A DNA stretch of 64,000 bases from an uncultured candidate division Zixibacteria bacterium (GCA_963801605.1 CAWDFP010000006.1:736001-800000); one strand, 5' to 3'; positions 36,785-52,284 are shown, counted from the first letter of the stretch. Numbers and translations: made by a program. The notes: a model not told the origin generated them from the letters alone.

Positions 36785-36814
36785 TTGACTAAAATCTGTG
36801 TTGTATGTTAATAT
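36785..36814 (+). promoter_or_regulatory. Putative promoter of the first cytochrome operon
   Basis: TTGACT-18 nt-TAATAT with upstream TG; a TTCACAA half-site ends 5 nt before the -35. Confidence 0.45.
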
Positions 36815-36926
36815 AGAGGCATTAAGGGAACCTGGTGATTGGTTCTACTTTATGATTTGCGTCATATTTCCCTTGACGGAGCTGATAATGATGTTTAGTA
36901 TAGTTATCAAATATTTGGAGGCGATT

Positions 36927-37388
36927 GTGAAGGTATTCACATCAGCTAAATTTCCTTTACTTCTTGCTCTTCTTACTGCGCTTCTGACCTTATCATGCGA
37001 AACCGAGGTTAAGGAGTTAACTATCAGGGTAACAAGTCGTATGTACTCTAATTTCGAAGAAGAGCATAAGGTCAAGATGTACGAAAAATTTCAGATATCC
37101 GATACTGATCTTGAGGCCGTGGCGGTTGAATTCTATCCTGATTTCGATCTCGATACCCTGACGTTTAAGGCTTATTCCAAATCGGATACGTTAAATAATC
37201 CTGCCGTCAAGATTCTGATCATCAAAGGAAATGAGAAAAAAGAGGAAGCCTGGGCGTTTTTGCCGGGGCTGGTTCCGCATTTCTCACCTCGTTCTTTTAT
37301 TGGTTTTGAACTGATGGATTACAAAACTGGCAAGAAATATATAAAGCCGCTAAAACCCAGTCCTGAAAAAGGGAAGGAAAATGAATAA
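36927..37388 (+). CDS. Lipoprotein, weakly reminiscent of the ResB periplasmic region
   Basis: GGAGG RBS plus GTG at 36927; LTLSC lipobox; F.PDF...S....NNPAV.I...W.F pattern. Confidence 0.65.
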   Translation: MKVFTSAKFPLLLALLTALLTLSCETEVKELTIRVTSRMYSNFEEEHKVKMYEKFQISDTDLEAVAVEFYPDFDLDTLTFKAYSKSDTLNNPAVKILIIKGNEKKEEAWAFLPGLVPHFSPRSFIGFELMDYKTGKKYIKPLKPSPEKGKENE

Positions 37389-40300
37389 AAGGCTACTAAT
37401 CTGCATTGCGCTTCTATTTTGTTTTGGATCATCCTCCCTTTACGCGAAGCAAAAGGAATGTTACGATTGCCATCAAAAGGCAAAAAAAACCTTCGATTCG
37501 TATAAATATTCGCACGAACCTGTCAAAAGCAAAGATTGTGCGGCCTGTCATGATTCGCATGGATTTTCGCAAAAGCTTGTTCTGAAGGCATACGATAACA
37601 GCATTTGCACCAAATGCCACAAGGAATTTGCGGCGGGCTATCCTCCCAGCACGGCAACTTATGTTCATCAGCCTATGAAAGATCGCGTTTGTTGGTCTTG
37701 TCATGAGCCTCACGGCAGTAATCTTCCATCGCTGGTGCGGGTGGTAAATGACACTTTGGTTTGCTTTATATGCCATGACGACGTAGGCAATCTTCAAAAA
37801 AAGACAGTGGTACATGAGCCATTCGCAAAAAATCAATGTTCGGCCTGCCACAGTGCACATGACAGTCAAGTCGCAGGGCTTCTAAATAAAAATCAAAAGG
37901 AGCTATGCGCCGGATGTCACAGCTTAACCGATAAAGATTATTTGGCTAAACACTCAGTTACGGGTATCGATAAAATCGATTGTGTTACTTGTCACAATCC
38001 TCATGCCTCCGACAAACCAGGCCTGATCGATCCACTGGCACATGCTCCGATGGTAGAGGGTAGTTGCGAAAGTTGCCATAGTAATTTGGCCGCGGGAGAT
38101 ACCACAATTTCGACCACGCCCGGCGAACTATGTGTTACCTGCCATGATGATATTGGCAAGAAAATGGCCATGGCAACGCCTCATCCGCCGGCGGCGGGCG
38201 GAGAATGTCTAACCTGTCATTCGGCTCATAAGGGTAAAGAAAAATCGTTATTAGTATCCAAGCCCGGCGAACTATGCCTGGGATGTCATACCGAGTTCGC
38301 CGACACGTTAAAACTCGAAGGTGTCCATACTGCATTAAGAAATGGCGACTGCAATCTTTGTCATGATTCTCACGGTTCTCCCAATAAAAGCCTGGTTAAG
38401 GATACATCGGATAAACTCTGTCTCGATTGCCATACCGCCCTCAGGGATTCGATGTCTGTTGCAAAGACTCCTCATCCTGCCGTGGAGACCAAGGGATGTC
38501 TCGGTTGCCATCAACCGCATTATTCCAAAAAGATGCCCCTTTTGGTTGATGACGAGAAGCTGATTTGCTTACAATGCCATGACAATCTTAAAGAAGAGAG
38601 CAAGGCCGGAACGGTTCATATTCCGTTTATGTCGGGGCAATGCGGAGCCTGCCATAATCCGCATGGTTCATCCCAGCCTAATATGTTTCGGTCAAGCGTA
38701 CCGGCCGTTTGCGGGCGGTGCCACAATGACGTTATCCAGACTCTCTCTTTGCCGTCAACACACCCGCCTGCCAAAGAGGGTGAATGCCTTTCATGCCACA
38801 AACCGCACTCATCAGATTTTGCCAGGCTTTTAAAGGCAAATGAAAGTCAAAGCTGTGCCGAGTGCCATGGCGATCTGGATGGTAAGCTCGCCGTAAAGAA
38901 TCTTCATACGCCTGTTAAGAATGGCCAATGTACAGCTTGCCATAATCCTCATGGCGCCAAAGAGGCAAAGCTTCTGCCTGCAAGCGGGAAAGATCTTTGT
39001 TTATCATGTCATAAGGATAAAGCGGAAGAGCTGAAAAAAGCAGTGGTGCACCAGCCGGTCAAAGACGGGGAGTGTACCACCTGTCATTTAGCGCATGGAT
39101 CAAATGAGCGTAATAATCTTATTAAACCTGTCGCCGAGCTCTGTCAGGGTTGCCATGATCCCAGTATCGATAAAATTAAAACAGCCCACGGCGGATATGT
39201 TGTCCGAGGTTCCAACTGCGTTACCTGCCATAATCCTCATGCCTCCGATCAACCGAAACTCGTTAATAAAGTTCAACATGCACCGTTTGCGGAAAAAAGC
39301 TGCGATTCGTGCCATAAAGGTTTAGGCGAGGGCGGCAAGGTACAGTTAGTGGCTGAAGGCGACGCTTTATGCGCTCAATGCCACGATGAAGTCGGCAAAA
39401 TTATGGGGCAGCCGAATATTCACACGCCGATTAAAATGGGCCAGGGATGTATAAGCTGTCATGATCCGCATGCCTCGCGAAACGAGAAGATGCTTATTGA
39501 TAAGGTCCCGACGCTCTGCTACAATTGCCACAGCGATTTACAAACGAAATTCGAATCCGATAAAGCCCACTCGCCTGTTAAAGATGGCAACTGTTTAGCC
39601 TGCCATGAAAAACACAGTGGTCCAAACAAGGGACTTCTGATTACCAAGAGCACACAACTCTGTTATAGCTGCCACACAAAAGAAAAAGAAAAGTTTACTA
39701 AAGAGGTAGCTCACAAGCCGGTGGCCGAGGGAAATTGTTTCCAGTGTCACGATGCTCATTCTACCGATAACAATTTTATGTTAGTAAAGCCTGAAAGCAA
39801 GCTCTGCGTAACCTGTCATTCACTGACCACGCCGGCGTTTCAGCAAGCTCATCATAATTTCCCGATGGAGACCGCCGAATGCGCCAAGTGCCATGATCCT
39901 CATTCAACTCCGAAAGGATCGGTCGCGCTGCTTTATCCTGATCAGCATAGTCCTTTTAAGATTCGAAACTGTAATGCCTGCCATGTATCTAACAAGAGTT
40001 TCGCCACGATAAAGAGCGGTAAAGAGCTTTGCCTACAATGTCACACCAAGTCGGATGCCCTCTTTGCCAAGAAAAATGTGCACAAGGCGGTTTCGATGCC
40101 GGGCGAATGTGTCAACTGCCATTCGCCGCATACAGGATTTTCCGCAAATATCCTGTCAAAGCCGGCGGGGGATGTCTGTTTTAATTGTCACAAAAAGGCG
40201 GAATTCGAGGGTAAATTCAAACACAAACCGGCTACCGAGAACTGCTCCATTTGTCATGAAGTGCATTCATCGGATAACGCCAGCCTTTTAAATGGTGATG

Positions 40301-40497
40301 ATGAGATAAAGCTCTGTCTTAAGTGCCATAACGCCGATAAAACGCACATGCATCCCATGGGCAAGGATTATAAGGATCCGCGTAACGGGGAAAGGTTAGT
40401 CTGTACAAGTTGCCATTCGCCGCATTCGAGTAATTTTGAAAATATCCTGATGGCCGATAAACAGAGGGAGCTTTGTGTGGCCTGCCATGCTCTGTAA
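37381..40497 (+). CDS. Giant 42-heme cytochrome c built from doubled-CXXCH repeats
   Basis: Signal peptide; 42 CXXCH counted by hand in 1038 aa; repeating H.P....CxxCH.PH......L.....LCxxCH unit. Confidence 0.95.
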   Translation: MNKRLLICIALLFCFGSSSLYAKQKECYDCHQKAKKTFDSYKYSHEPVKSKDCAACHDSHGFSQKLVLKAYDNSICTKCHKEFAAGYPPSTATYVHQPMKDRVCWSCHEPHGSNLPSLVRVVNDTLVCFICHDDVGNLQKKTVVHEPFAKNQCSACHSAHDSQVAGLLNKNQKELCAGCHSLTDKDYLAKHSVTGIDKIDCVTCHNPHASDKPGLIDPLAHAPMVEGSCESCHSNLAAGDTTISTTPGELCVTCHDDIGKKMAMATPHPPAAGGECLTCHSAHKGKEKSLLVSKPGELCLGCHTEFADTLKLEGVHTALRNGDCNLCHDSHGSPNKSLVKDTSDKLCLDCHTALRDSMSVAKTPHPAVETKGCLGCHQPHYSKKMPLLVDDEKLICLQCHDNLKEESKAGTVHIPFMSGQCGACHNPHGSSQPNMFRSSVPAVCGRCHNDVIQTLSLPSTHPPAKEGECLSCHKPHSSDFARLLKANESQSCAECHGDLDGKLAVKNLHTPVKNGQCTACHNPHGAKEAKLLPASGKDLCLSCHKDKAEELKKAVVHQPVKDGECTTCHLAHGSNERNNLIKPVAELCQGCHDPSIDKIKTAHGGYVVRGSNCVTCHNPHASDQPKLVNKVQHAPFAEKSCDSCHKGLGEGGKVQLVAEGDALCAQCHDEVGKIMGQPNIHTPIKMGQGCISCHDPHASRNEKMLIDKVPTLCYNCHSDLQTKFESDKAHSPVKDGNCLACHEKHSGPNKGLLITKSTQLCYSCHTKEKEKFTKEVAHKPVAEGNCFQCHDAHSTDNNFMLVKPESKLCVTCHSLTTPAFQQAHHNFPMETAECAKCHDPHSTPKGSVALLYPDQHSPFKIRNCNACHVSNKSFATIKSGKELCLQCHTKSDALFAKKNVHKAVSMPGECVNCHSPHTGFSANILSKPAGDVCFNCHKKAEFEGKFKHKPATENCSICHEVHSSDNASLLNGDDEIKLCLKCHNADKTHMHPMGKDYKDPRNGERLVCTSCHSPHSSNFENILMADKQRELCVACHAL

Positions 40498-40503
40498 ACG
40501 CTA

Positions 40504-41031
40504 ATGCCCAATAGACGCCATCAAATCTTCGTAAGAGGAGGAGACCACCGCGGGCTGCTGGTGGGATCGATTATCCTGATTCTTGTCCTGGTAGTAGTGG
40601 CATCAGGCTTGTTTTATATTTTAGCGAACAGAAATTTGGAACAGGCCACTTACCGGGCACATTTCGAGACTTTGCGGAACACAATGCAACTGCTTCTTCC
40701 CTGGCTTCTGATAGTAAATATAATCGCGCTGATTATAGTGATAATTCTGGCTCTGTTTTTCACTCACAAGATCGCCGGACCGGCATACCATCTAATTGTT
40801 GATCTCAAAAAGGTTAAGGATGGGGATCTAACGGTGAGAACTGCATTTCGTAAAGGTGACCGCCTCAAGGAGGTAGCATCTGCAATGTCTGAAACGACCG
40901 AGAATCTGCGTTTAATCGTTGCGGATATTAAAAATGATGTTGCCAATATTTCGGAAGTTTGCGGAGACGAGAAAACCGTTAAGGAGAAACTCGAAAATCT
41001 CAATAGGACTTTGGGCAAATTAAAAACCTGA
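40504..41031 (+). CDS. 2-TM protein with HAMP domain and short coiled coil
   Basis: Two TM helices; THKIAGP...GDL....FRKGD.L.E.A. Confidence 0.8.
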   Translation: MPNRRHQIFVRGGDHRGLLVGSIILILVLVVVASGLFYILANRNLEQATYRAHFETLRNTMQLLLPWLLIVNIIALIIVIILALFFTHKIAGPAYHLIVDLKKVKDGDLTVRTAFRKGDRLKEVASAMSETTENLRLIVADIKNDVANISEVCGDEKTVKEKLENLNRTLGKLKT

Positions 41032-41586
41032 TGTGGCTGGTATTATTAGCCGTTTTGATGGCGGTAAATGAAAATTCAATTTCGCCGAATATTATGGCGG
41101 AGAATATTATCGGCCATACGGGGACGGTATTTCGGGAAAACGCCGGTTTGAAATCGGATAGCTGTACCATCTGTCACAATGACGGGGGATTTGATTTGAG
41201 CGCGACCACCAACCAACTCTGTTACCACTGCCATGACGATGTCGAATCCAAATCACTAAAGAGGTTCAAGCATACGGACGTTGTTAACCCCCAATATCCC
41301 GAGCGTAAGTTGCGAGGGATGCCATAAGCTTCACAAAGCAGGCGCGAGACCGTTACTGACTCAAAACGAAATGGAGCTTTGCCAGGGCTGCCATCCGGAA
41401 ACAAAGCAATACCTATCTCATCCGGTTGTAACCGGCTTACAGGGACAGACGATTACCGGGAGCGATGGGCGAGTTATTACCTGTGCATCACATTGTCATG
41501 ATGTTCACGGCACGGACAATAAATATTTCTGCAAATTGGAGCCGGGGCGAGAATTGTGTATTTCATGCCATAAGGATTTTGAGTAA
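41031..41586 (+). CDS. Small multiheme cytochrome c (5 CXXCH + 1 CX3CH), frameshift near 41300
   Basis: CTICH, CYHCH | CEGCH, CQGCH, CASHCH, CISCH. Confidence 0.8.
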
Positions 41587-41593
41587 GATCGAT

Positions 41594-42481
41594 ATGATTA
41601 AAGAGCGTACGAAAATTTCGCATTTTCTTATTTCGATATCTTTATTGATGTTGTTTTCCGTTTCGGCTGATGCTCAATTCAGCGAACAGCATAAAGGTTA
41701 CGCATTTGAAAACCCGGGCTTTTTAAGCATCCCCGGAGCACTATCATACGATAGCGGACGACATCGTCTGGCCATTGCCGACAAAGGCCGTCAGTTAGTT
41801 TATCTATTCGACCTCACCGATCACTCCTATCAAACCCTTGGAGCGGATAAAGAATTAGGAGAGCCTGCCGGATTGGCTTTTAGCCGTCAGGGTACATTAT
41901 TTATCGTCGAGGACAAAAGCCCTTATATCCTAAAGTTTCCATATTCAATCGATCAACCGGAAACGCTAAAATTCGGAGATAGTGGCAGCCCGATTCATCC
42001 TGGAAAGTTATTTATCAAAAACGATGGCGGTATATTAATTGCCGATAAAGACGATGCTGCCATTTATTCAATTGATTCCACCGGAGTACTTACCGGGAAG
42101 ATCACCGAAAAGTTAAGGCAGCCAGATGGAATTATGATCGATCTTTCTGGAGAAATCCTTGTGGCCGATAAAGGTGTTGACCCTATTTTGGTATATAGCT
42201 CAAAAGGTGAATTCGAGCGTAAACTCTCGCGGCCGGAATCTCCCACATCGCAGTTTAGCTTTGCCGCATCGGGGTTGGCAATTGATCAAAGCGGTTGGAT
42301 ATATACTCTGGATATGACAAGAGAGCAAATCGTTACTTTTGACCCTACCGGAGTTAATCGTTTGGAATGGGCGCCTGAAGCGCCATTTTTCCCGGAGGAT
42401 ATCGCAATTGACCGCTATAATACGATCTATGTTTCAGAGAGCGGCTCAGGCAGCGTTCGTATTTTTTCGAGGAGCAACTGA
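41594..42481 (+). CDS. Secreted NHL-repeat beta-propeller protein
   Basis: Signal peptide; P.G.A....G...VAD repeats. Confidence 0.85.
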   Translation: MIKERTKISHFLISISLLMLFSVSADAQFSEQHKGYAFENPGFLSIPGALSYDSGRHRLAIADKGRQLVYLFDLTDHSYQTLGADKELGEPAGLAFSRQGTLFIVEDKSPYILKFPYSIDQPETLKFGDSGSPIHPGKLFIKNDGGILIADKDDAAIYSIDSTGVLTGKITEKLRQPDGIMIDLSGEILVADKGVDPILVYSSKGEFERKLSRPESPTSQFSFAASGLAIDQSGWIYTLDMTREQIVTFDPTGVNRLEWAPEAPFFPEDIAIDRYNTIYVSESGSGSVRIFSRSN

Positions 42482-42483
42482 TA

Positions 42484-43356
42484 GTGCATCCGATATTGGC
42501 GGCGATAATACTCAGTGCAAACATTGGATCGTCCAGGATTGAATTTGCAGCCGTTACTCCGGGGACGATCGATGGGCTTCCTATGAATAATGCCCAATGC
42601 CTGGCAGTCAACCCGCGCACTGAGGAATTTTTGGTGGCTGACGCCCTAAACGATCGCATCCTGGTTTTTGATACCACCGGTCTGCCCGTATTTGATTTTC
42701 AGCTTGGAGCGAATCGTCATAATCCCTTTGGGATTGTAGTCGATTCATCCGATCAGATAATTGTGGGGGCGATGGATTCTCCGGTGCTTTGGATATACGA
42801 TTATAGCGGCGAGTTCGTAGATAATATCGAACTTCCCGATAGCGTATATCCGGGTAGGCTTTTAGCCTTACCAGGGGGCAATCTATTGGTTATAAACCGT
42901 TCAGGTCGGGGTGCGCTGCAAATTGATCACAGCGGGAATATCGTTTCGAAATATGAGGTATCCCGGGAAGAGTGTAAACCTTCAGGCATATGTCTCGATG
43001 CAAAAGGAAATATCATTATAGTTTCCTCGGCCGGGCCGGTTATCACTGCATTTGATCATTATGGGAAAGCGATATTTTCCTTTGGGGAACATGGCCGGGA
43101 GCCAAAAGATTTTTCCCGGCCGACAGCCGCCGCGATTGATGACCACGGCAACTATTGGATAGTTGACTCATTTAGGCATGAGTTAAAGCTTTTTGATTCC
43201 GATCATAATTTCAAGGAGGTTTTTGGACAACGCGGCACTAATAAAGGAGAGTTTTATTTCCCGGCGGATATAAAGATAACTTCAAGCGGTAAAATGGGGA
43301 TATTGGATAAGGGGTCAGGAAGGCTTCAGATATTTAGATTGAATTATGACAAATAA
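42484..43356 (+). CDS. NHL-repeat beta-propeller protein
   Basis: PFGIVVDS, FGEHG....FSRP..AAID, FGQRG...GEF..P.DI repeats. Confidence 0.88.
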   Translation: MHPILAAIILSANIGSSRIEFAAVTPGTIDGLPMNNAQCLAVNPRTEEFLVADALNDRILVFDTTGLPVFDFQLGANRHNPFGIVVDSSDQIIVGAMDSPVLWIYDYSGEFVDNIELPDSVYPGRLLALPGGNLLVINRSGRGALQIDHSGNIVSKYEVSREECKPSGICLDAKGNIIIVSSAGPVITAFDHYGKAIFSFGEHGREPKDFSRPTAAAIDDHGNYWIVDSFRHELKLFDSDHNFKEVFGQRGTNKGEFYFPADIKITSSGKMGILDKGSGRLQIFRLNYDK

Positions 43357-44329
43357 GCTAATAAAAATCGGACTTACAGTTCTATTGCTTCAGTTGCCGG
43401 CTATTGGAGGAGAATACCATCAGCAATCGGATGTTATTTGCAGCGATTGCCATACAACTCACTATAGCGAGCATGGCACGCTGCCTGAAAAGGCCGAACC
43501 GGGCGGGCCCTTCACCGAGCTTCTCCTGGTTGGGTCAATTAATAAGCTGTGTCTATCTTGTCACGATGGCACCGACCCGGCGGCTCCCGATGTGCTTTTC
43601 CCCGTGGCGATGTATAACGGATCAGGCTCCGAATACTCGGGGGCAGGCTTTTTTTCCAATGCGGACGGCGTGATTTCCGTTAATGGCCACTCTCTCGGTG
43701 TTCCGCTTGAGATTCCCGATTCTAATCCGGCGCGGACGGTGATGCTTTCCTGCATCAGTTGTCATGACGCGCATGGCACATCCAATTACCGAAATCTGGT
43801 TTTAAATCCGGATAGTTTGGGTATCGACATAAATCTTTCAATAGGCGCCGATGTTTTTGAAAATGTTCATCCTCAGAATCCGCCCGAAAGAAATGCGTCT
43901 ATCCAGGCGTATAAATCGGGCAACAGCGGATATGTCGATAAAATTACTTTATGGTGTACAGACTGTCATAACGCTCTGTCTGTGGATAATCCCGGAAATC
44001 CGCCGGCTCATTTTATGCGTCATCCGTCCGGAGTGAGTATGGATGGCGTTTCCTATCATCTGAGTCCGGCGCATTGGGTAAGCGGAGAAGGGGACGGGTT
44101 TGGATTAGCCACCGGGGATGGCCTCGAAGGAATCCCCAGGGTACGTTTCCAGTCTGAAGGGGCGACTGATTATAACACTGCGATTACGCCATCAAGAACG
44201 AATCAGGTGTTTTGTTATTCATGTCATTTTGCTCATGGCGGCCCGTATGAGGCTTCATTAGTATGGCCATATAAAACCAGCGGTGCAGCGGATATGTACT
44301 CGGGGTGTCAGCAATGTCATTACAAATAA
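43346..44329 (+). CDS. Hexaheme cytochrome c with OmcS-like motif layout (paralogue A)
   Basis: YH-x6-CSDCHTTH, LCLSCH, GH, CISCHDAHG..YRNL, WCTDCH, RHP, VFCYSCHFAHG, terminal CQQCH. Confidence 0.85.
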   Translation: MTNKLIKIGLTVLLLQLPAIGGEYHQQSDVICSDCHTTHYSEHGTLPEKAEPGGPFTELLLVGSINKLCLSCHDGTDPAAPDVLFPVAMYNGSGSEYSGAGFFSNADGVISVNGHSLGVPLEIPDSNPARTVMLSCISCHDAHGTSNYRNLVLNPDSLGIDINLSIGADVFENVHPQNPPERNASIQAYKSGNSGYVDKITLWCTDCHNALSVDNPGNPPAHFMRHPSGVSMDGVSYHLSPAHWVSGEGDGFGLATGDGLEGIPRVRFQSEGATDYNTAITPSRTNQVFCYSCHFAHGGPYEASLVWPYKTSGAADMYSGCQQCHYK

Positions 44330-45883
44330 AAAAACGATCCGAAATATATTTGGCGACGGCGCTCACCTTAGCGGTCATTGTGATACTGGCCGGTTTAGTG
44401 TATGCCGATTCCGGCGCATATAAGACCACCAAACACGCAGACCCACAAATCGGAGTGAACCGCGATTCCAATCTTCCTCGGGGCAATTGTAGTCAATGCC
44501 ATTTGGAACATAACACCGATAATCCCAACGATTATGCTTTATTCGCCCCGCCGGATAACTCACTATGTCTTTCGTCCGGTTGCCATGAGTACGAATATCA
44601 ATGGCCTCCGGGAAACTATTACTGGAGCTATCCCGGCAATGTGCCCGACTGGTATAACTCGGCCCACGGATCATCGACAGCGCTATTCACACCGGGCGGT
44701 AACCGCGAAGTGCGGCTTTGCGTGCAATGTCATAATCCGCACGGCAAAACCGATTCAACGTATGGCGTTTACCCCTCGGAGACAAGTTTCCTCGAAGAAG
44801 GCGGCTGCTATTCTAACGGCGGATTAATAGGGCAGGGATGCCATGGGAATAATTCAAGTAACAGGCCGATCGGGGCTGCAGATATTTATTCGGAAATTCT
44901 TAAATCATCGCGGCATAATGTCGAAGCGACCACCAAGGAGCATTCCTCTGATTGGATAGCGGTGTATCCTTACGGCAGAGAATCGCGAACGCCTGTCTCA
45001 GGTTTTTTCGCTGGTGATAGGCGGCATGTCGAGTGTGTTGATTGTCACAATCCGCACAAGGCGATTACGGGAACGCATCAGCCGGCGACAGGAGAAATCG
45101 GCGGTCCGCTTTTGGGCAATTGGGGAGTGGAACCCGGTAGCAGCGCACCCTGGACCGTCCCAATGAGCTTTAATGCTGTTGATTTTTCCTCGATATCTAC
45201 GGCCAGAGAGTATCAGCTCTGCCTGAAATGTCATAGTTATTTTGCCTATGGATATAGTCCTCCCACGGGATACACCGATATCGCCCGCGAAATAAATCCG
45301 GCTAATGCTTCATTTCATCCAATTGAGGATACAATTCGAACCAACTCCTACACATCGCCGTCCCCAAATAACAATTTTACCGAAACGATGGAAACACCCT
45401 GGGATGATGGCCGTCACAACCAGATGACATGTTCCGATTGCCATGGTTCGGAAAACGGTGCTGATCCCAAAGGCCCGCATGGTTCAAACCAGCCCTATAT
45501 CCTCATGGCTTCGCCGGCCGCAGGCGAAACCGCTTTATGTATCAAGTGCCATAAAGCATCGGTTTATGCGCCGCCGTTTGATCCGGGCGCACAGGAGACA
45601 GGCAGTAGATTCGATTTGCAAACGACGGGAAACGATAAGGCAAATCACTACTATCATGTAACAATCATGAGACTTGGCTGCCGGCAATGTCACGCGGCAC
45701 GGCAGACGGTCCCCCCCGGCAATCCCTGAACAGCGGACCCCTTATCCGATTCAGGTGGGTTCGGCTCACGGAACTAATTTGTTTGCCGGTCTACTAAATG
45801 GTACGAATATTAATTCGTATTCTCCGGGAAGCTGCGCTCCCACTTGCCATGATCCGGTCACTTATAATGCAGGGCCGGAATAA
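44314..45883 (+). CDS. Multiheme cytochrome c (7 CXXCH + 3 extended motifs), frameshift near 45725
   Basis: CSQCH, CVQCH, CVDCH, CLKCH, CSDCH, CIKCH, CRQCH plus CLSSGCH, CYSNGGLIGQGCH and CAPTCH (tail in ORF 45674-45883). Confidence 0.85.
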
Positions 45884-47502
45884 TGCCGAGAAGATTTGTG
45901 TTTGTCATTATTATGCTGGCATCATTAAAAGCTTCTGCCTCCGATTTGAGAGGAAATCTTAATCTCAGCTATCAAGGCACTGATGGAGGGGCGGAAAATC
46001 CCGCGTCTTCAGTGTTCAGCCAGGTTGCCAATCTTTATATTACCGACCGTATCTTTTACGGCAATGATTTAACTCTGGGAGCATTTATTTTTCACACCAA
46101 AACCTCAGGAGCGGCCAGAGGCGATTTGCGCGTTAGATATTCTGCGAATCTTTTAGGCAATAGATATTCACTTTATTCGTCGTATTCACCATACACCCTG
46201 TACCGCCCCGGAGGGGGTGCACTCAAGGTACGAGTATTTCAAGGATCTCTTACTTACCGTCCAAAATTGCTCCCGGATATTATGGGCAGTTACGCCTCTA
46301 CTCGTCAGTATACAACCGACAAACCGCGATCCCAGGACGGGCTAAATTATTCCTGGAATTTGGGGACTCAGTTTTCCAAATCGTTTGGATCGTTCAGCGG
46401 CGTCTATCAAAGGCAGCAAACAAAAAACGATCAGGCTCTCGTTCAAACCAAACAGATAACACGAACTATTAATTTGGGATATGATATTTCAAAACAGTAT
46501 CCGGCCAATGTTAATTGGTCGGCGGGATATAATTATATAGGTACCACTACAGAGAACCCGGGTATTCAAAAGGATAATAGCCGAACGCATATCGGCTCTT
46601 TTCAGGTTGGACGGAATTTTGGCAAATGGTTTTCAATGTCAGGGGCGACGTCTGGCCGAATTTTCGATCTTGAGCATTTGTCCAGAACAACCAGGATCGA
46701 AGATTTTCTTGCCAATGGCTCGGCCAGCATGAAGCTTCGCGAGAACATCACATTTGTACTTCTTCGAGGCTATAATATCAGTCAGAACAAAGAAGATTCT
46801 ACCACGAAAATTATAAACGATTATATAAATCTGGGGGGTGTCTGGGGATTTTCGGTTGGACGAGGCGCCGATACGCGGCTGGCGTTGTCGAGATCGTATT
46901 ATTATGCTTCAATCCAGGGGCGCAATATCGTTGATAATGGCACCCTGATTTTTGATATGAATCTTTATCGCCGCACCACCGCGACGGTCAATCTGGGAGT
47001 TGCTCGTAATCAGAAGATTCTTTCCGGCTTTGGGAGATATCAAATGACGCGTAATGTCGATATTATTTCGAGGCCGCTGAGGTCAATATCGCTAAACATG
47101 AATTACCAGTCATCCGAAACCTCAAACTCGATCAATTTCAAGAACAGCAACAGCGACAATTTTTCTGTGAATCTAACACATATTTTGAAATATTATTTTA
47201 ATTATGCGTTAACTTATACGCGGTCTGCCTTTCATTCGCAAGGGATGAATAATTTCTCGACATTATCGGTGGCATTTAATTACCGATTGAGCAATACGCT
47301 TTCGTTACTCGGAACGTATAGCAGGCGAGATCTGGGCGAATTATCCACAGCACTTGAAAGCGGTATCGATCAAACTGTGGGAGGCAGAATTTCCTGGATT
47401 ACCTCACCAAGAAGTAATTTGACTTTGAATTATTCCGTTTCCAATATTAATACCACACGTCAAACACAAGGTTTTGGCGGTTATTTTGTGACGAGCTTTT
47501 GA
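45883..47502 (+). CDS. Large outer-membrane beta-barrel protein
   Basis: Signal peptide; alternating aromatic/polar strands rich in Y/N/S/T throughout; C-terminal Phe (GGYFVTSF). Confidence 0.8.
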   Translation: MPRRFVFVIIMLASLKASASDLRGNLNLSYQGTDGGAENPASSVFSQVANLYITDRIFYGNDLTLGAFIFHTKTSGAARGDLRVRYSANLLGNRYSLYSSYSPYTLYRPGGGALKVRVFQGSLTYRPKLLPDIMGSYASTRQYTTDKPRSQDGLNYSWNLGTQFSKSFGSFSGVYQRQQTKNDQALVQTKQITRTINLGYDISKQYPANVNWSAGYNYIGTTTENPGIQKDNSRTHIGSFQVGRNFGKWFSMSGATSGRIFDLEHLSRTTRIEDFLANGSASMKLRENITFVLLRGYNISQNKEDSTTKIINDYINLGGVWGFSVGRGADTRLALSRSYYYASIQGRNIVDNGTLIFDMNLYRRTTATVNLGVARNQKILSGFGRYQMTRNVDIISRPLRSISLNMNYQSSETSNSINFKNSNSDNFSVNLTHILKYYFNYALTYTRSAFHSQGMNNFSTLSVAFNYRLSNTLSLLGTYSRRDLGELSTALESGIDQTVGGRISWITSPRSNLTLNYSVSNINTTRQTQGFGGYFVTSF

Positions 47503-47516
47503 TCTCTGGAGGATAG

Positions 47517-48101
47517 ATGAAAAATAAATGCCTTATTTTGGGAATTACATTGTTATTGGCAGTCCTCGGATGCGGCGGTCCCCGGACCTTTCTCAACGGC
47601 AACACAGATTGGACATTTTATAAACAGCTTGGCGTCTTGCCATTTGTTAATCTAACAACCGATCGTTTTGCGGGCGAAAAGGTGCAGTCGGCCTTTATTA
47701 CCGAACTTTTTCTTTCGGAACGCTTTCAGGTTATGGAACCAGGAGAGTTTAACTCCAGAGTAGCCCAGGAACTTAAAACCTCGGCATCGCAGCCCGTCCA
47801 GGAACTTTCCCTTGACCAGATCAAAACGATCGGTGAAAAAACCGGAGTTCAGGGGGTAATCGAGGGTGTTGTCAGAGAATATGGTACTACCCGAGTGGGG
47901 CAAACCGATTACCCGGTCATTAGCTTAAGTATCAGAATGATCGATGTTCCTACCGGAACAGTAATCTGGATGACATCTTTCAGCAAAAAAGGCGGCCCTA
48001 ATTTGCCGATCGTATCGATTGGAGAGACGCATACGCTAAGCGAACTGACGCAGAAGATCTGCCATGACATTGTTTCTGATTTTGTAAGCCGTGCCTTTTA
48101 A
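47517..48101 (+). CDS. Lipoprotein, CsgG/PelC/GNA1162-like
   Basis: VLGC lipobox; GVLPFVN...AG..V...F..EL...F.VME.GE; G.V.EYG; IRMIDV.TG.VIW. Confidence 0.75.
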   Translation: MKNKCLILGITLLLAVLGCGGPRTFLNGNTDWTFYKQLGVLPFVNLTTDRFAGEKVQSAFITELFLSERFQVMEPGEFNSRVAQELKTSASQPVQELSLDQIKTIGEKTGVQGVIEGVVREYGTTRVGQTDYPVISLSIRMIDVPTGTVIWMTSFSKKGGPNLPIVSIGETHTLSELTQKICHDIVSDFVSRAF

Positions 48102-48112
48102 GGAGAATTCGG

Positions 48113-48688
48113 ATGAAGCTTTACTCGAAAACAAACTGGATAATAATTTTATCGTTGGCGTTTTTGTCATGCGGTCCAAAGCCAAGCGTTTACCTGCAGG
48201 ATAACAATGGCGCCAAAGCGTCCAAGACGCTCGCCATTTTGCCATTCGATAATTACTCCGGAAAAGAGGATGCCGGCAAGCAAGTGGCCAATGCCTTTTT
48301 GGTGGAACTTCTCAAGAATCCATCGTTTCATGTCGTAGAGCCGGGAGAAGTCGATAGGGTGATGAGGGAGGAACGGATTCGCTCATCGAGCCAGATTGAT
48401 CTGAATGCGGCTCGGCTATTTAAAGATAAGCTTTCGTCGGATTATATTTTAATTGGCGCGGTCAATGAGTTTGATTATCTCAAAGACGGCGATCGTGATG
48501 TTCCCCTGGTGGGATTTACGGTAAGGTTGCTCGATACCTCAAATGGACAGATTGTTTGGGCGGCCAACTACAGCAGGCGGGGGGACGATCACGAGCTTGT
48601 TTTCGGCTGGGGTTTGGTAAGCTCGCTTTCGGAACTAACTCAAATCAGCGTTCGCGATGCAATTTCCCGTATAAAGATTGCACAGTAA
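48113..48688 (+). CDS. Lipoprotein, CsgG/PelC/GNA1162-like (second paralogue)
   Basis: FLSC lipobox; AILPFDN.SG...AG..VA..F..EL; VRLLD...GQIVW. Confidence 0.75.
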   Translation: MKLYSKTNWIIILSLAFLSCGPKPSVYLQDNNGAKASKTLAILPFDNYSGKEDAGKQVANAFLVELLKNPSFHVVEPGEVDRVMREERIRSSSQIDLNAARLFKDKLSSDYILIGAVNEFDYLKDGDRDVPLVGFTVRLLDTSNGQIVWAANYSRRGDDHELVFGWGLVSSLSELTQISVRDAISRIKIAQ

Positions 48689-48764
48689 ACGTAACTCATT
48701 ACCTCTCTTTTGGTTAGCTTGCCGTCTTAACGGTAAGAATAACGATAATTATTTGAAATAATAC

Positions 48765-48855
48765 TTGACATAGTAATTGTTACTAATATATTTATGACGA
48801 ATATCATAAATCCCGAGAGGATTTTTGTTAAACGCTCTTGTGAAGAACTTCACTA
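48765..48855 (+). promoter_or_regulatory. Internal promoter with palindromic operators for the second cytochrome transcription unit
   Basis: TTGACA-16 nt-TATATT; palindromes TAGTAA-N3-TTACTA (48771-48785), TTTATGA-N6-TCATAAA (48791-48810), TTGTGAAGAACTTCACTA (48838-48855). Confidence 0.6.
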
Positions 48856-48874
48856 ACCTCGATGTAGAAAAAAA

Positions 48875-49823
48875 ATGAGAAGATACTTTATCCCGCTGAT
48901 TTTCCTACTTGTCAACCTGGCTGTCTCGGCCGAACCGTTGGTCGAGCCCAATGTCAGTCTTGTCAGTGTGGTTAAAGGTTATTCGGATCGTAAAGCATTT
49001 GGAAATCCCACAGGAATATTCCTCGATCCCATAAAAAACGAAATCTATGTCGCCGACGCCGGTAATCATCAGATTGGGATATTCGACAAGCGCGGCACCA
49101 GCTTGTGGACATTCAAGCACTGGGTAACGGATAGCCGGGAGGAAGGCGCCAGGATATCTGGGCGATCCTCATTCAATAGTGGTTACCAAAGACGGCGACA
49201 TCATCGTCAGCGACAACAAAGCTGATTATATCGATGTTTTTGATTATCGCGGCTCACTTCAATTAAAAATATCTCCTGAAGATTATCCTGAGGCAGGCCC
49301 ATTCAGAGGCGCCATTCTGGCGCTTGATAAATCAGGCAATCTTTATATCGGCACGATTCTTGAAAAATCGGAAATCCTGGTGCTCGATTCCGATTATCAG
49401 CTTATCAAGCGATTCGGGAAAAAAGGTGAGGAGCCGCAGGATTTCCAGAATATCTCGGGAATCTGGGTGAACGGTGATGGCAACATTCTGGTCACCGATG
49501 CCCTGGGCACTCCAATTTTGAAGAAATTCAATTCCAACGGCGAATATCTCGGTGGTTTTGGAGAGCATAGTATCGAGAAAAACGATTTTTCGTTTCCAAG
49601 CGGAGTGGTGATGACCTCAAGCGGGCGGATCTGGATCGTCGATCAACTTCGACAGGTAGTCAAATGCGTGAACGATTCGGGAGCTTTCATCACTATGATC
49701 GGCGGCCTGGGATATGCTCCCGGCGATATGTGCTATCCCTCCGGAGCCGCTTCCGACGGAGATTCGACGCTGGTAGTAGTCGAGAAAAACGGTAATAGAT
49801 TTCAACAATTTATCATCAGGTAA
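48875..49823 (+). CDS. Secreted NHL-repeat beta-propeller protein, frameshift near 49140
   Basis: Signal peptide; NPTGIF.D...IYVADAGNH; FGKKG...F..ISGI; FSFPSGV; YPSG.A.D. Confidence 0.85.
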
Positions 49824-49937
49824 TAAAATGATTAACCCTAAAGTAAATATGCCAGAAGGAGGTGGTACGGTAGTTACAATTTTCACAACTCAGATTGTTA
49901 TTACACGCACTTATTATCAAATTCGAGAGGTTTTGTA

Positions 49938-50987
49938 ATGAAGAAAATTTTCGCACTAACTCTGGCAATGGTATTCGTTTTCGCGATGACGGCATTCGCC
50001 GGTGAATACCACATGGGAAGCTCATTGAGCTGCTACCAGTGCCATTCAATGCACTATAGCCAACAGCATATGTTTGGCTATGCTCACGAGGATAGTATTC
50101 CGTTCCTCGGCCCCGATGGACCATACAACAAGCTGCTTCGTTCGGATGTCAACGATCTTTGCCTTTCCTGCCATGACGGGGGAGATGTCATAGATGTTTA
50201 CGGCGTATCCGAAGTCAACGCGACAGTTAACCGCGAGGGCGGTTTCCTTAGCAGAGTCGGCGACGGCAATGAGAATCACGGCCATACGCTCGGAGCCACC
50301 AGCACTGCTCCCGGTAGCCTTCCAGCTTGGAGCCCGGATCAGACAGAGGGTCTTACCTGCGTCAATTGCCATAGCGCACACGGCAGCGCCGGTTCAGGGA
50401 ATCCGGATCAGGTTAAGGGTCAGTGGAGAAACCTGACCAGGAATCCTGGCAACGGAACCAACAGATACGTCAACTACGAAAAATCCAGCGAGCCCGTAAA
50501 CACGACCCGCGACATCAAGTGGAGATCCTCCAGCGCCCACGACGCCGGCGCTTATGAAACCGACAATGTCGATTTTTATGAGCCCGTGTCATCTGAATCC
50601 CGTTACGGCGCCTGGTGCCAGGGATGCCATACCAATTTCCATGGTAATTCCTCAAGCGACAATATGGCTAATGCGGACGGATGGATCCGTCACCCGACAG
50701 CCGACGTTAATCTAGGGACCTCTGGCGCAACCGATTTTGCATCCCATGCTTATCGTCCGCAAGTGATGAGCCCGACAGGCAACTGGGGCACCCAGGGCGA
50801 TTCCACCTGGACTCCGCCGACCGATCTTACCCCGACTTGCGTTACTTGCCATAAAGGCCACGGCAACGGTAATGCGTTCGGTCTCGTTTATATGGATGGC
50901 CGCCATCCGCGTACAGAAAACGGCGATGCGGTATCTACCAAGATTACTGCTACCTGCAAAATCTGTCACAGCCAGGGCGGTTATTAA
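49938..50987 (+). CDS. Hexaheme cytochrome c with OmcS-like motif layout (paralogue B, likely major subunit)
   Basis: AFA signal cleavage site; YH-x6-CYQCHSMH, LL..LCLSCH, GGF..GH, APG..LTCVNCHSAHG, WRNL, WCQGCHTNFH, RHP, CVTCHKGHG, terminal CKICH. Confidence 0.88.
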   Translation: MKKIFALTLAMVFVFAMTAFAGEYHMGSSLSCYQCHSMHYSQQHMFGYAHEDSIPFLGPDGPYNKLLRSDVNDLCLSCHDGGDVIDVYGVSEVNATVNREGGFLSRVGDGNENHGHTLGATSTAPGSLPAWSPDQTEGLTCVNCHSAHGSAGSGNPDQVKGQWRNLTRNPGNGTNRYVNYEKSSEPVNTTRDIKWRSSSAHDAGAYETDNVDFYEPVSSESRYGAWCQGCHTNFHGNSSSDNMANADGWIRHPTADVNLGTSGATDFASHAYRPQVMSPTGNWGTQGDSTWTPPTDLTPTCVTCHKGHGNGNAFGLVYMDGRHPRTENGDAVSTKITATCKICHSQGGY

Positions 50988-50998
50988 TAGTCCGCTTG

Positions 50999-51034
50999 AA
51001 GGAGGGTGTCTCGCACACCCTCCTTTTTCTTTTC
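50999..51034 (+). terminator. Strong hairpin with U-tract after paralogue B
   Basis: AAGGAGGGTGT-CTCGC-ACACCCTCCTT followed by TTTCTTTT. Confidence 0.8.
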
Positions 51035-51057
51035 ATACTTTTACTGCGGGATAAATA

Positions 51058-52176
51058 ATGATCAAACACACAATTGTATTTCTTTTTGCGATGATTTCTC
51101 TTTCTACCGCCGGAACTATTTTACAGAATGACGGTTTCCCGCACAAACCCGGTTCCGGTTATCAACCCGGCGCAATACTCGATACGCCGCCCTTTACGCC
51201 AGGTTATCACAATGGCAACGACATGGTTTGCTCAGATTGCCATATTATGCATGCCTCTATGCAGCATGATTATGGTACCCCTGATTCTTATACCTATCCT
51301 TATAACGTTGAGCCTCCCGCAAATCATCTTCTTAAGGCTGCGAACGCCTTAACGCTGTGTCTGTCCTGTCACAACGATAAGGTTGGTATTCCCGATGTTG
51401 TCGGCGCCGACGTCAATGGAGGGAGTGATCGTGCGGCGGGACAGCTTGGCGAAGTTGGCGAAATCAACAACAACGGGCATAATATTGCTCCTGATCCGGG
51501 GGACCTCTGCAATCGATGCCATTTTGGAGGGGAGTTTCACACCGCTTCTGTAGAGTGTATCGATTGTCATGCTCCACATGGTACCCGGTATTATCGCAAT
51601 TTACAGTGGGCGTCATGGCCGGGTCATCAGCCACCTATTGTCGCTTTTGTCAGGCCTGGTTCGCAGGGACTTGACAAATATCAAACTGCCAATGTTCGAT
51701 ACGGCGCTCCCGGTTATGGACGTGGTCAGGCGACCTGGAGAGAGGTAACTAATATCTGCATTGATTGTCATCATACCCTGGTTGACGCCTCGCCCAACGG
51801 TGGACGTTATACCAATCCGGAGCTTGATGATCATTGGAATAGACACCCCGGTACAAATAGCGAAGACGGCGCATATCGGCCTATTGGCGGTTTACCGGAT
51901 GATCCCGATGTTTACACCGATCCTCAGAATTGGGTAAGCGGTGAAGGTTCCGAATTTTCTGTTGGACGAGTGCCTTATATCGTAACCGAGGCTCACTCAT
52001 TTCAACAGGCGGACGTTGTTTCCACCAGTAACGAGGTTTTCTGTCTTTCCTGTCATAGCGCTCACGGCACCGATAAGCCGTTTGGTTTACGATGGAATCC
52101 GACCAATAACTCAACTCCACTGGCTACTGCTGGATGCCGTCAATGCCATAACAATACAGCGAGCAATATTCCATAG
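51058..52176 (+). CDS. Heptaheme OmcS-like cytochrome c (paralogue C)
   Basis: YH-x6-CSDCHIMH, LCLSCH, extra CNRCH, CIDCHAPHG..YRNL, CIDCH, RHP, VFCLSCHSAHG, CRQCH. Confidence 0.85.
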   Translation: MIKHTIVFLFAMISLSTAGTILQNDGFPHKPGSGYQPGAILDTPPFTPGYHNGNDMVCSDCHIMHASMQHDYGTPDSYTYPYNVEPPANHLLKAANALTLCLSCHNDKVGIPDVVGADVNGGSDRAAGQLGEVGEINNNGHNIAPDPGDLCNRCHFGGEFHTASVECIDCHAPHGTRYYRNLQWASWPGHQPPIVAFVRPGSQGLDKYQTANVRYGAPGYGRGQATWREVTNICIDCHHTLVDASPNGGRYTNPELDDHWNRHPGTNSEDGAYRPIGGLPDDPDVYTDPQNWVSGEGSEFSVGRVPYIVTEAHSFQQADVVSTSNEVFCLSCHSAHGTDKPFGLRWNPTNNSTPLATAGCRQCHNNTASNIP

Positions 52177-52247: not shown

Positions 52248-52284
52248 TAATAAGGTATCCATCCGGGTACCTTATTATGTTTTT
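52248..52284 (+). terminator. Probable terminator ending the cytochrome cluster
   Basis: TAATAAGGTATCC-ATCC-GGGTACCTTATTA then TGTTTTT. Confidence 0.55.

Follow-up and report, generated by a model that had tools for sequence, protein, structure and literature searches.

Compact OmcS-family cytochromes encoded in a putative extracellular electron-transfer gene cluster of a candidate division Zixibacteria bacterium

A 64,000-nucleotide stretch of DNA from an uncultured candidate division Zixibacteria bacterium (GCA_963801605.1, CAWDFP010000006.1:736001-800000; the whole stretch is called the window below) encodes three predicted secreted multihaem cytochromes, here named A, B and C, which are remote homologues of OmcS. 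OmcS filaments are the best-understood biological "wires". On the basis of this homology we lean, with some reserve, towards polymerisation of A, B and C in the OmcS manner, with a histidine of one subunit ligating a haem of its neighbour. An earlier note on this DNA had described the three as OmcS-like paralogues that keep the inter-subunit histidine motif, and had suggested that they might form base, shaft and tip of one filament. The three genes are:

43346..44329, plus strand: paralogue A, predicted secreted hexahaem OmcS-family cytochrome, 327 amino acids (aa), six CxxCH motifs; His39 is the equivalent of OmcS residue 16
49938..50987, plus strand: paralogue B, predicted secreted hexahaem OmcS-family cytochrome, 349 aa
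51058..52176, plus strand: paralogue C, predicted heptahaem variant, 372 aa, with an extra CNRCH motif and an N-terminal extension of about 30 residues that contains a conserved histidine

Three paralogous cytochromes

The three OmcS-like open reading frames (ORFs) lie exactly where the earlier note had placed them, all on the plus strand, and encode paralogous c-type cytochromes. Every motif is present in the order given there, that is YH-x6-CxxCHxxH (CSDCHTTH in A, CYQCHSMH in B and CSDCHIMH in C), LCLSCH, GH, CxxCHxxHG, (Y/W)RNL, CxxCH, RHP, CxxCHxxHG and a terminal CxxCH; the list had missed a seventh CxxCH in C. In a MAFFT alignment B and C share 33% and 36% identity with A, and BLASTP gave E-values of 9e-24 for A and B and 1e-17 for B and C. 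By these comparisons the three are true paralogues, with chance motif matching excluded. Exactly three family members were found genome-wide (3.06 Mb, 14 contigs, 86.9% complete), namely A, B and C, and the nearest relatives of A are Zixibacteria proteins with 70-72% identity.

The N-termini are hydrophobic and carry AxG/AxA sites (judged by eye), with the hydrophobic window located ahead of YH. A, B and C are predicted to be Sec-secreted c-type cytochromes, A and B with six haems and C with seven. With the signal peptide cut placed by eye, the mature proteins have about 306 (A), 327 (B) and 354 aa (C) and are, as had been claimed, shorter than OmcS, whose solved chain has 407 aa. The mature N-terminus of A and B lies two residues ahead of YH, and in the 221 relatives with six or seven haems that lack the additional C-type motif, YH follows the hydrophobic signal segment at a median distance of four residues. 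This matches OmcS, the solved chain of which starts at FH. A YH at the mature N-terminus, as had been proposed for all three proteins, was found for A and B and not for C, in which YH follows the signal peptide only after about 30 residues.

Homology to OmcS

A profile built from 38 sequences retrieved OmcS (6ef8/6nef) from the PDB with an E-value of 4.1e-17. With a profile of 147 sequences the match to OmcS 6EF8 reached 3.1e-24 and covered chain residues 1-347, 16 orders of magnitude ahead of the runner-up, a nitrite reductase (7e-08); NrfA-type nitrite reductases were matched with E-values from 1e-7 to 1e-2. The HMMER alignment begins at residue 1 of the solved chain, pairing FH-x6-CEGCHTMH (residues 1-16) with YH-x6-CxxCHxxH, and then matches the landmarks GH, CxxCHxPHG, YRxL, W-CxxCH, RHP and CxxCHxAH. 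The start of OmcS and the common motif order that the earlier note had stated are thereby confirmed. The sequence alignment spans haems 1-5 together with the landmarks, and the structural alignment extends it to chain residue 406. A deltaproteobacterial ORF (from locus L078) bridges the two groups, since it matches OmcS at 6.4e-10 over residues 17-407 and is itself found with paralogue A as tblastn query (1e-16) and with the family HMM (1e-46).

Among the three paralogues, A was folded with AlphaFold2. The model has a predicted local distance difference test score (pLDDT) of 62 and a predicted TM-score of 0.65, with residues 17-120 below pLDDT 50. The structural alignment with OmcS that the earlier note had called for was made with VIA-align and fits the model to 6ef8_A over its whole length (Z 10.2, root-mean-square deviation 4.7 Å, 237 residues, model residues 27-327 against chain residues 6-406), at about 20% identity. 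Only four of 48,161 representative chains reached Z >= 2, and the second of these was OmcE with Z 4.1 over 127 residues. In a Foldseek search of the PDB the only credible match was again 6ef8_A, a weak one (E 3.6e-3, TM 0.30). Taken together, homology to OmcS is well supported by sequence profiles and by the model, remote though it is, and the moderately confident model of A indicates a shared fold.

Profile searches of the PDB found no other close OmcS relative among solved structures. OmcE (7tfs) gave a weak and partial profile match (E 1.3e-06), and six or seven haem motifs against four place A, B and C outside the OmcE group. Pfam and NCBIfam yielded generic families (Paired_CXXCH_1, cytochrome c7/c3) and no dedicated OmcS family, and a search of the ESM Atlas returned generic names only.

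Distal histidines and possible ligation between subunits

We aligned A, B and C with 134 of the 149 listed representatives at 50% identity, after removal of 15 with lengths outside 290-460 aa. Exactly six histidines outside the haem motifs are conserved (93-100%), for six haems, and each pairs with a histidine of OmcS. In the numbering of A these are H25 (132 of 137 sequences), H39, which is the CxxCHxxH histidine (127), H115 (136), H143 (137), H226 (134) and H297 (133). All six are present in A, B and C; retention of the CxxCHxxH histidine in the three paralogues had been the central claim of the earlier note. Such conservation marks this histidine as a haem ligand throughout the family, although, being common to all members, it cannot establish ligation between subunits.

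In the profile alignments OmcS residue 16 is the last histidine of CEGCHTMH. We take this residue to be the ligand to haem 5 of the neighbouring subunit. In the family His39 stands three residues past the proximal ligand of haem 1, a position from which haem 5 of the same chain would be out of reach in an OmcS-like fold, so that ligation across the subunit interface is the natural interpretation. For OmcS every haem is described as bis-His ligated, with one histidine of haem 5 supplied by the adjacent monomer (PMC7096707, PMC9473688).

Paralogue C and a heptahaem subfamily

The additional motif of C, CNRCH, is located 16 residues ahead of the haem-3 motif. Among the 233 family sequences that could be scored for this motif and for an N-terminal extension, 12 carry an extra motif 12-22 residues ahead of haem 3. 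An extension of at least 20 residues between signal segment and YH was found in eight of these 12 and in two of the 221 others, and seven of the eight extensions in extra-haem sequences contain a histidine. The members named in this way (51058-52176, which is C itself, L014:9575-11014, P0123, P0141, P0142, P0143, P0165 and P0180) have the extra CxxCH 13-19 residues before haem 3 and an extension of 22-41 residues with a conserved histidine. The sister of C in the tree is the Gemmatimonadota ORF of locus L014, likewise with seven motifs and an extension (Shimodaira-Hasegawa-like approximate likelihood ratio test, SH-aLRT, 100). By these features C belongs to a heptahaem subfamily, and the most evident candidate to provide the extra haem with its sixth ligand is the histidine of the extension.

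The surrounding gene cluster

A, B and C are part of a cluster of about 15 kb (approximately 36.8-52.3 kb of the window), in which a 42-haem cytochrome is followed by a small membrane protein, a small cytochrome, two NHL proteins, A, the multihaem cytochrome cyt474, a beta-barrel, two lipoproteins, a split NHL gene, B and C. A PAS-LuxR regulator on the opposite strand flanks the cluster upstream, and an EamA transporter downstream. The remaining features are:

36798-37388: 196-aa ORF with no Pfam family, overlapping the start of the 42-haem gene
37381..40497, plus strand: 42-haem cytochrome of doubled-CXXCH units, 21 Paired_CXXCH_1 stretches, 42 CxxCH
40504-41031: 175-aa membrane protein, weak HAMP-like match
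41031..41586, plus strand: small multihaem cytochrome, two overlapping ORFs (41031-41327 and 41281-41586; 98 and 101 aa)
41465..42481, plus strand: NHL-repeat beta-propeller, 338-aa ORF, Pfam NHL/SGL
42484..43356, plus strand: NHL-repeat beta-propeller directly upstream of A, Pfam NHL E 1.4e-15
44305..45729, plus strand: cyt474, multihaem cytochrome with at least seven CxxCH, its start overlapping the stop of A
45883..47502, plus strand: predicted outer-membrane beta-barrel of about 28 strands, AlphaFold2 model all beta, pLDDT 64.5
47517..48101, plus strand: LpoB/CsgG-like lipoprotein 1, Pfam LpoB 3e-06, CsgG 1.4e-05
48113..48688, plus strand: LpoB/CsgG-like lipoprotein 2, Pfam LpoB 1.7e-07, CsgG 2.3e-07
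48765..48792, plus strand: promoter-like site ahead of the unit of the NHL gene and B, a consensus match only (11 of 12 positions)
48875..49823, plus strand: NHL propeller upstream of B, two overlapping ORFs in different frames (48875-49225 and 49179-49823)
50998..51026, plus strand: terminator-like hairpin 3' of B, 12-bp stem followed by a T run
52248..52277, plus strand: terminator-like hairpin 3' of C at the cluster end, 13-bp stem

The 42-haem cytochrome is presumed to be a periplasmic wire. At L052:3371-6789, in a metagenome-assembled genome (MAG) of Desulfosudis oleivorans, neighbouring ORFs with 26 and 16 CxxCH stand in place of the single 42-motif ORF. The 338-aa NHL ORF overlaps the small cytochrome, so its true start probably lies later than 41465. 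The small cytochrome may be another case of a frame split, as seen in the NHL gene upstream of B. The two halves of that NHL gene are contiguous in one frame in eight loci of relatives, and the split reflects either a frameshift, with the gene a pseudogene, or a fault of the assembly. Foldseek returned 193 matches with E <= 0.001 for the barrel model, including TonB-dependent receptors, LptD and MtrB; among the 47 matches listed, MtrB (6r2q_B) had the best TM-score (TMq 0.49).

The locus survey covered 48 related loci of at least 15 kb, in which accessory genes were sought by tblastn at E 1e-5. NHL genes adjoin family genes in 31 of them, at least one lipoprotein is present in 27, a giant cytochrome in 29 and all three in 23. 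The order A-cyt474-barrel-lipoprotein-lipoprotein-NHL-B is identical in four Ignavibacteria loci (L005, L006, L009 and L010), where the NHL gene occupies a single frame. All gene kinds of the osc and oet systems discussed below occur in the window (OmcS-like cytochrome, giant multihaem cytochrome, barrel, lipoproteins and NHL propeller), and by its gene kinds we assign the cluster to the osc/oet type of extracellular electron-transfer clusters.

cyt474 and natural fusions

The genes of A and cyt474 overlap by 25 nucleotides (44305-44329), and in five of five loci (L005, L006, L008, L009 and L010) a cyt474 homologue starts within about 150 nucleotides of the end of an A-type gene. Three of the 149 listed representatives (P0214, P0157 and P0124) combine an A-type and a cyt474-type part in a single chain; in P0214 residues 24-349 are A-like and residues 349-752 cyt474-like. 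The fused cyt474-like part aligns from residue 33-44 of cyt474, that is past the signal peptide, and the fusions retain the free N-terminal YH-CxxCHxxH arm. These fusions suggest that cyt474 contacts the C-terminal end of A. They also indicate that family modules can work end to end with another cytochrome, the first haem motif of which is likewise CxxCHxxH. cyt474 could be a fixed partner of A, or a filament cap or anchor.

We do not claim cyt474 itself as a member of the family: an hhalign comparison with the family profile matched only the terminal paired-CxxCH region, and the match from a relaxed hmmsearch (cyt474 residues 229-468 against profile positions 130-333) was weak and composition-biased. 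Besides its seven canonical CxxCH motifs, cyt474 contains CLSSGCH and C-x11-CH as candidates detected by eye, and relatives have nine canonical motifs there. Were the long relatives P0124, P0157 and P0264 (14-24 motifs) tandem OmcS-like repeats, they would speak for head-to-tail contact, but this proved not to be so: in each of them a single family module at the N-terminus precedes a multihaem part, cyt474-like or of another kind. The names of cluster members of ten longer relatives were uninformative. A 3,497-residue open frame with 56 CxxCH in a Coriobacteriaceae MAG (L076:1670-12160) and a 1,416-residue frame (L064:6791-11038) each contain a family-like module; Gram-positive and Acidobacteriota genomes may thus encode giant fused forms.

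Clades and copy number

A quick IQ-TREE tree was calculated from 95 ORFs with six or seven motifs and 270-470 residues after trimming. The clade of A contains sequences from Zixibacteria, Planctomycetota, Acidobacteriota, Nitrospirota and Ignavibacteriota, and C and its Gemmatimonadota sister sit beside it. B belongs to a separate clade (SH-aLRT 95, 23 rows) with members from Planctomycetota, Ignavibacteriota, Acidobacteriota and Zixibacteria. The sequences that match OmcS directly form a third group (SH-aLRT 99). Judged by this tree, A, B and C represent old separate clades.

Under a strict criterion, 31 of the 48 loci contain one family gene, 11 contain two, one contains three, one contains four and four contain none. 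Family genes occur as A alone, A+B, B+B and B+B+A; the last was found in the Zixibacteria locus L031, which has two B-type genes, one A-type and no C-type gene. Planctomycetota loci contain B-type pairs only. The separate clades, the variable copy number and the strong terminator-like hairpins that B and C each have to themselves argue against a fixed filament of base, shaft and tip, so that this part of the earlier note is left unsupported.

Proposed polymerisation and its alternatives

If A, B and C act as OmcS does, they would be exported through the barrel and lipoprotein machinery and then assembled head to tail. Haem 5 of each subunit would receive its second histidine ligand from the CxxCHxxH of the preceding one (His39 in A). 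The result would be a continuous haem chain, with electrons passing between it and both the 42-haem periplasmic cytochrome and barrel-associated cyt474. Each of A, B and C would most likely be transcribed under its own control and assemble into a homopolymer or short oligomer of its own, and not into one composite filament. We give this reading a cautious preference because homology and fold, the ligand set, the N-terminus, the conserved accessory genes and the fusions fit OmcS; the reported link of the osc block to OmcS maturation (PMC12977616) and the filaments proposed for oet systems (PMC10553843) are counted as context. Several observations weigh against it. Conservation of His39 throughout the family marks a haem ligand and does not discriminate filament formers, and in the model of A this residue lies in the N-terminal third, where pLDDT is below 50. 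Furthermore, the assembly shows a frame split in the NHL gene ahead of B, none of the accessory genes was found in 14 of the 48 long loci with family genes (tblastn, E 1e-5), and a fixed heteromeric complex would explain the fusions no less well than an open homopolymer. Among the Geobacter paralogues, OmcS alone is described as a proven wire (PMC12977616). In addition, phmmer searches of the PDB with A, B or C singly did not find OmcS; we do not hold these misses against homology, since the profiles and the bridging sequence match OmcS.

The same single-sequence misses, together with the generic Pfam and NCBIfam families and the matches to NrfA-type nitrite reductases, would be expected if the resemblance to OmcS were generic multihaem CxxCH spacing with no specific homology. 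This is most improbable, as OmcS ranks first at 3e-24 against 7e-08 and aligns end to end including the non-haem motifs GH, YRxL, the W before haem 4 and RHP, the second structure reaches only Z 4.1 against 10.2, and intermediates such as the L078 ORF connect A with OmcS. A real, though lesser, possibility is that A, B and C do not polymerise and serve, outside the cell or at the outer membrane, as monomeric cytochromes or as fixed porin-cytochrome partners that build no long filament. A, for example, could dock on cyt474 in the beta-barrel as MtrC does on MtrAB, and the CxxCHxxH histidine would then bind a haem within the same chain or in some other partner protein. The single-chain fusions, the overlap of the stop of A with the start of cyt474, the barrel gene that follows, the nearness of the barrel model to MtrB by TM-score among the matches listed and the standing of OmcS among the Geobacter paralogues all fit such an arrangement. 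What speaks for polymerisation instead is the OmcS fold and ligand set over the whole length: in OmcS, as described, haem 5 would have no in-chain sixth ligand and the N-terminal histidine no in-chain haem (PMC7096707). Moreover, no cyt474-type partner adjoins B or C, which lie in separate transcription units, and the fusions keep their N-terminal arm free.

A single filament with A, B and C as its base, shaft and tip is quite unlikely. They lie in one cluster, L031 likewise has three family genes, and their common end motifs make mixed head-to-tail contacts chemically conceivable. However, copy number is not conserved (31 of 48 loci are single-gene), L031 lacks a C-type gene, Planctomycetota loci hold only B-type pairs, the C type accounts for only 12 of 233 sequences, and the three paralogues fall into old separate clades, with B and C each followed by a terminator-like hairpin of its own. 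We regard as rather doubtful a combined proposal, in which the family includes the smallest OmcS-type filament subunits and two so far unreported assembly variants. In C-type subunits a second histidine, carried on the N-terminal arm, could latch onto the seventh haem, perhaps that of the neighbouring subunit in a "double latch". At the barrel, the CxxCHxxH of cyt474 could plug into haem 5 of the last A subunit and join the filament to the barrel; such a cap or anchor, if true, would answer how OmcS-type wires terminate and connect to the cell.

Distribution and significance

The family comprises 1,505 clusters at 50% identity (E <= 0.001), with members in Zixibacteria, Ignavibacteriota, Planctomycetota, Acidobacteriota, Nitrospirota, Gemmatimonadota, Actinomycetota and others. 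To our knowledge, a solved OmcS-type structure exists for the Geobacter protein only. The window leads to a much larger, shorter-chained branch of the family that retains every haem and ligand position. In the literature on OmcS with Zixibacteria or Ignavibacteria, a search that did not cover Shen et al. 2025, we found no paper on compact or heptahaem forms, and in the host phylum such a system has so far been uncharacterised. Should the compact forms polymerise, electron transfer over long distances outside the cell would occur in sediments and aquifers on a much wider scale than known from the model organisms, and structural biologists and engineers would gain a promising minimal scaffold in the 306-residue subunit. 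How wires are capped or anchored can be approached concretely through the fusion and heptahaem variants.

Comparison with known systems

A, B and C share with OmcS of Geobacter sulfurreducens (GSU2504; 6EF8/6NEF) six CxxCH motifs in the same order, the six distal histidines, the (F/Y)H chain start (in A and B), the landmarks GH, YRxL and RHP and, in the model of A, the fold over the whole length. They differ in being 50-100 residues shorter, a loss that is spread over loops and includes a 34-residue OmcS insert after the haem-3 motif; A has about 51 residues per haem against 68 in OmcS. C differs further by its seventh haem motif and N-terminal extension. The host is Zixibacteria-like and not a member of the Desulfuromonadia, and A, B and C are known here from their genes, whereas the filament is proven for OmcS. 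OmcE (7TFS) resembles them in the CxxCHxxH at its first haem, and is described as likewise using inter-subunit histidine ligation (PMC9473688). However, it has four haems, its fold differs beyond the haem core, and it matches far less well than OmcS.

In Desulfovibrio ferrophilus, multihaem cytochromes predicted to be extracellular adjoin NHL-repeat genes (DFE_0448-0451 and DFE_0461-0465; PMC5815863, PMC9769857), and these clusters serve as iron-cycling markers that flag Zixibacteria and Ignavibacteriales (PMC8478452). By gene kind, they share multihaem cytochromes and NHL propellers with the window; the passages describing them mention no barrel or lipoprotein. The oetABI cassettes of syntrophic sulfate reducers are described with OmcS-like, OmcX and Apc2a cytochromes, and filament formation has been proposed for the OmcS-like ones (PMC10553843). 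Again by gene kind, cassette and window have in common a periplasmic cytochrome, an outer-membrane barrel, an extracellular cytochrome and two or three putative filament cytochromes. oetABI is described there in Desulfobacterota only, and the twin LpoB/CsgG-like lipoproteins and the NHL proteins of the window are not part of that description (PMC10553843).

The osc cluster of Geobacter (Shen et al. 2025, as reported in PMC12977616, PMC12307469 and PMC13748539) likewise places an OmcS-like hexahaem gene near large multihaem cytochromes and lipoproteins, a likeness that is again one of gene kind. GSU2501, an OmcS-like hexahaem cytochrome, is reported always to occur with the eight-gene block GSU2500-GSU2493, which Shen et al. 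2025 linked to OmcS maturation and secretion (PMC12977616). Within this block GSU2494 and GSU2495 are described as cytochromes and GSU2497 as a lipoprotein (PMC3495685), and the NHL protein GSU2505 is encoded beside omcS (PMC9070056). In the window the giant cytochrome is a single 42-haem chain, against the neighbouring 26- and 16-motif ORFs of L052, and the gene content and order are those of relatives in the FCB group. A, B and C are expected members of a kind of system already described, in which an OmcS-type cytochrome is encoded with an osc/oet-type cluster.

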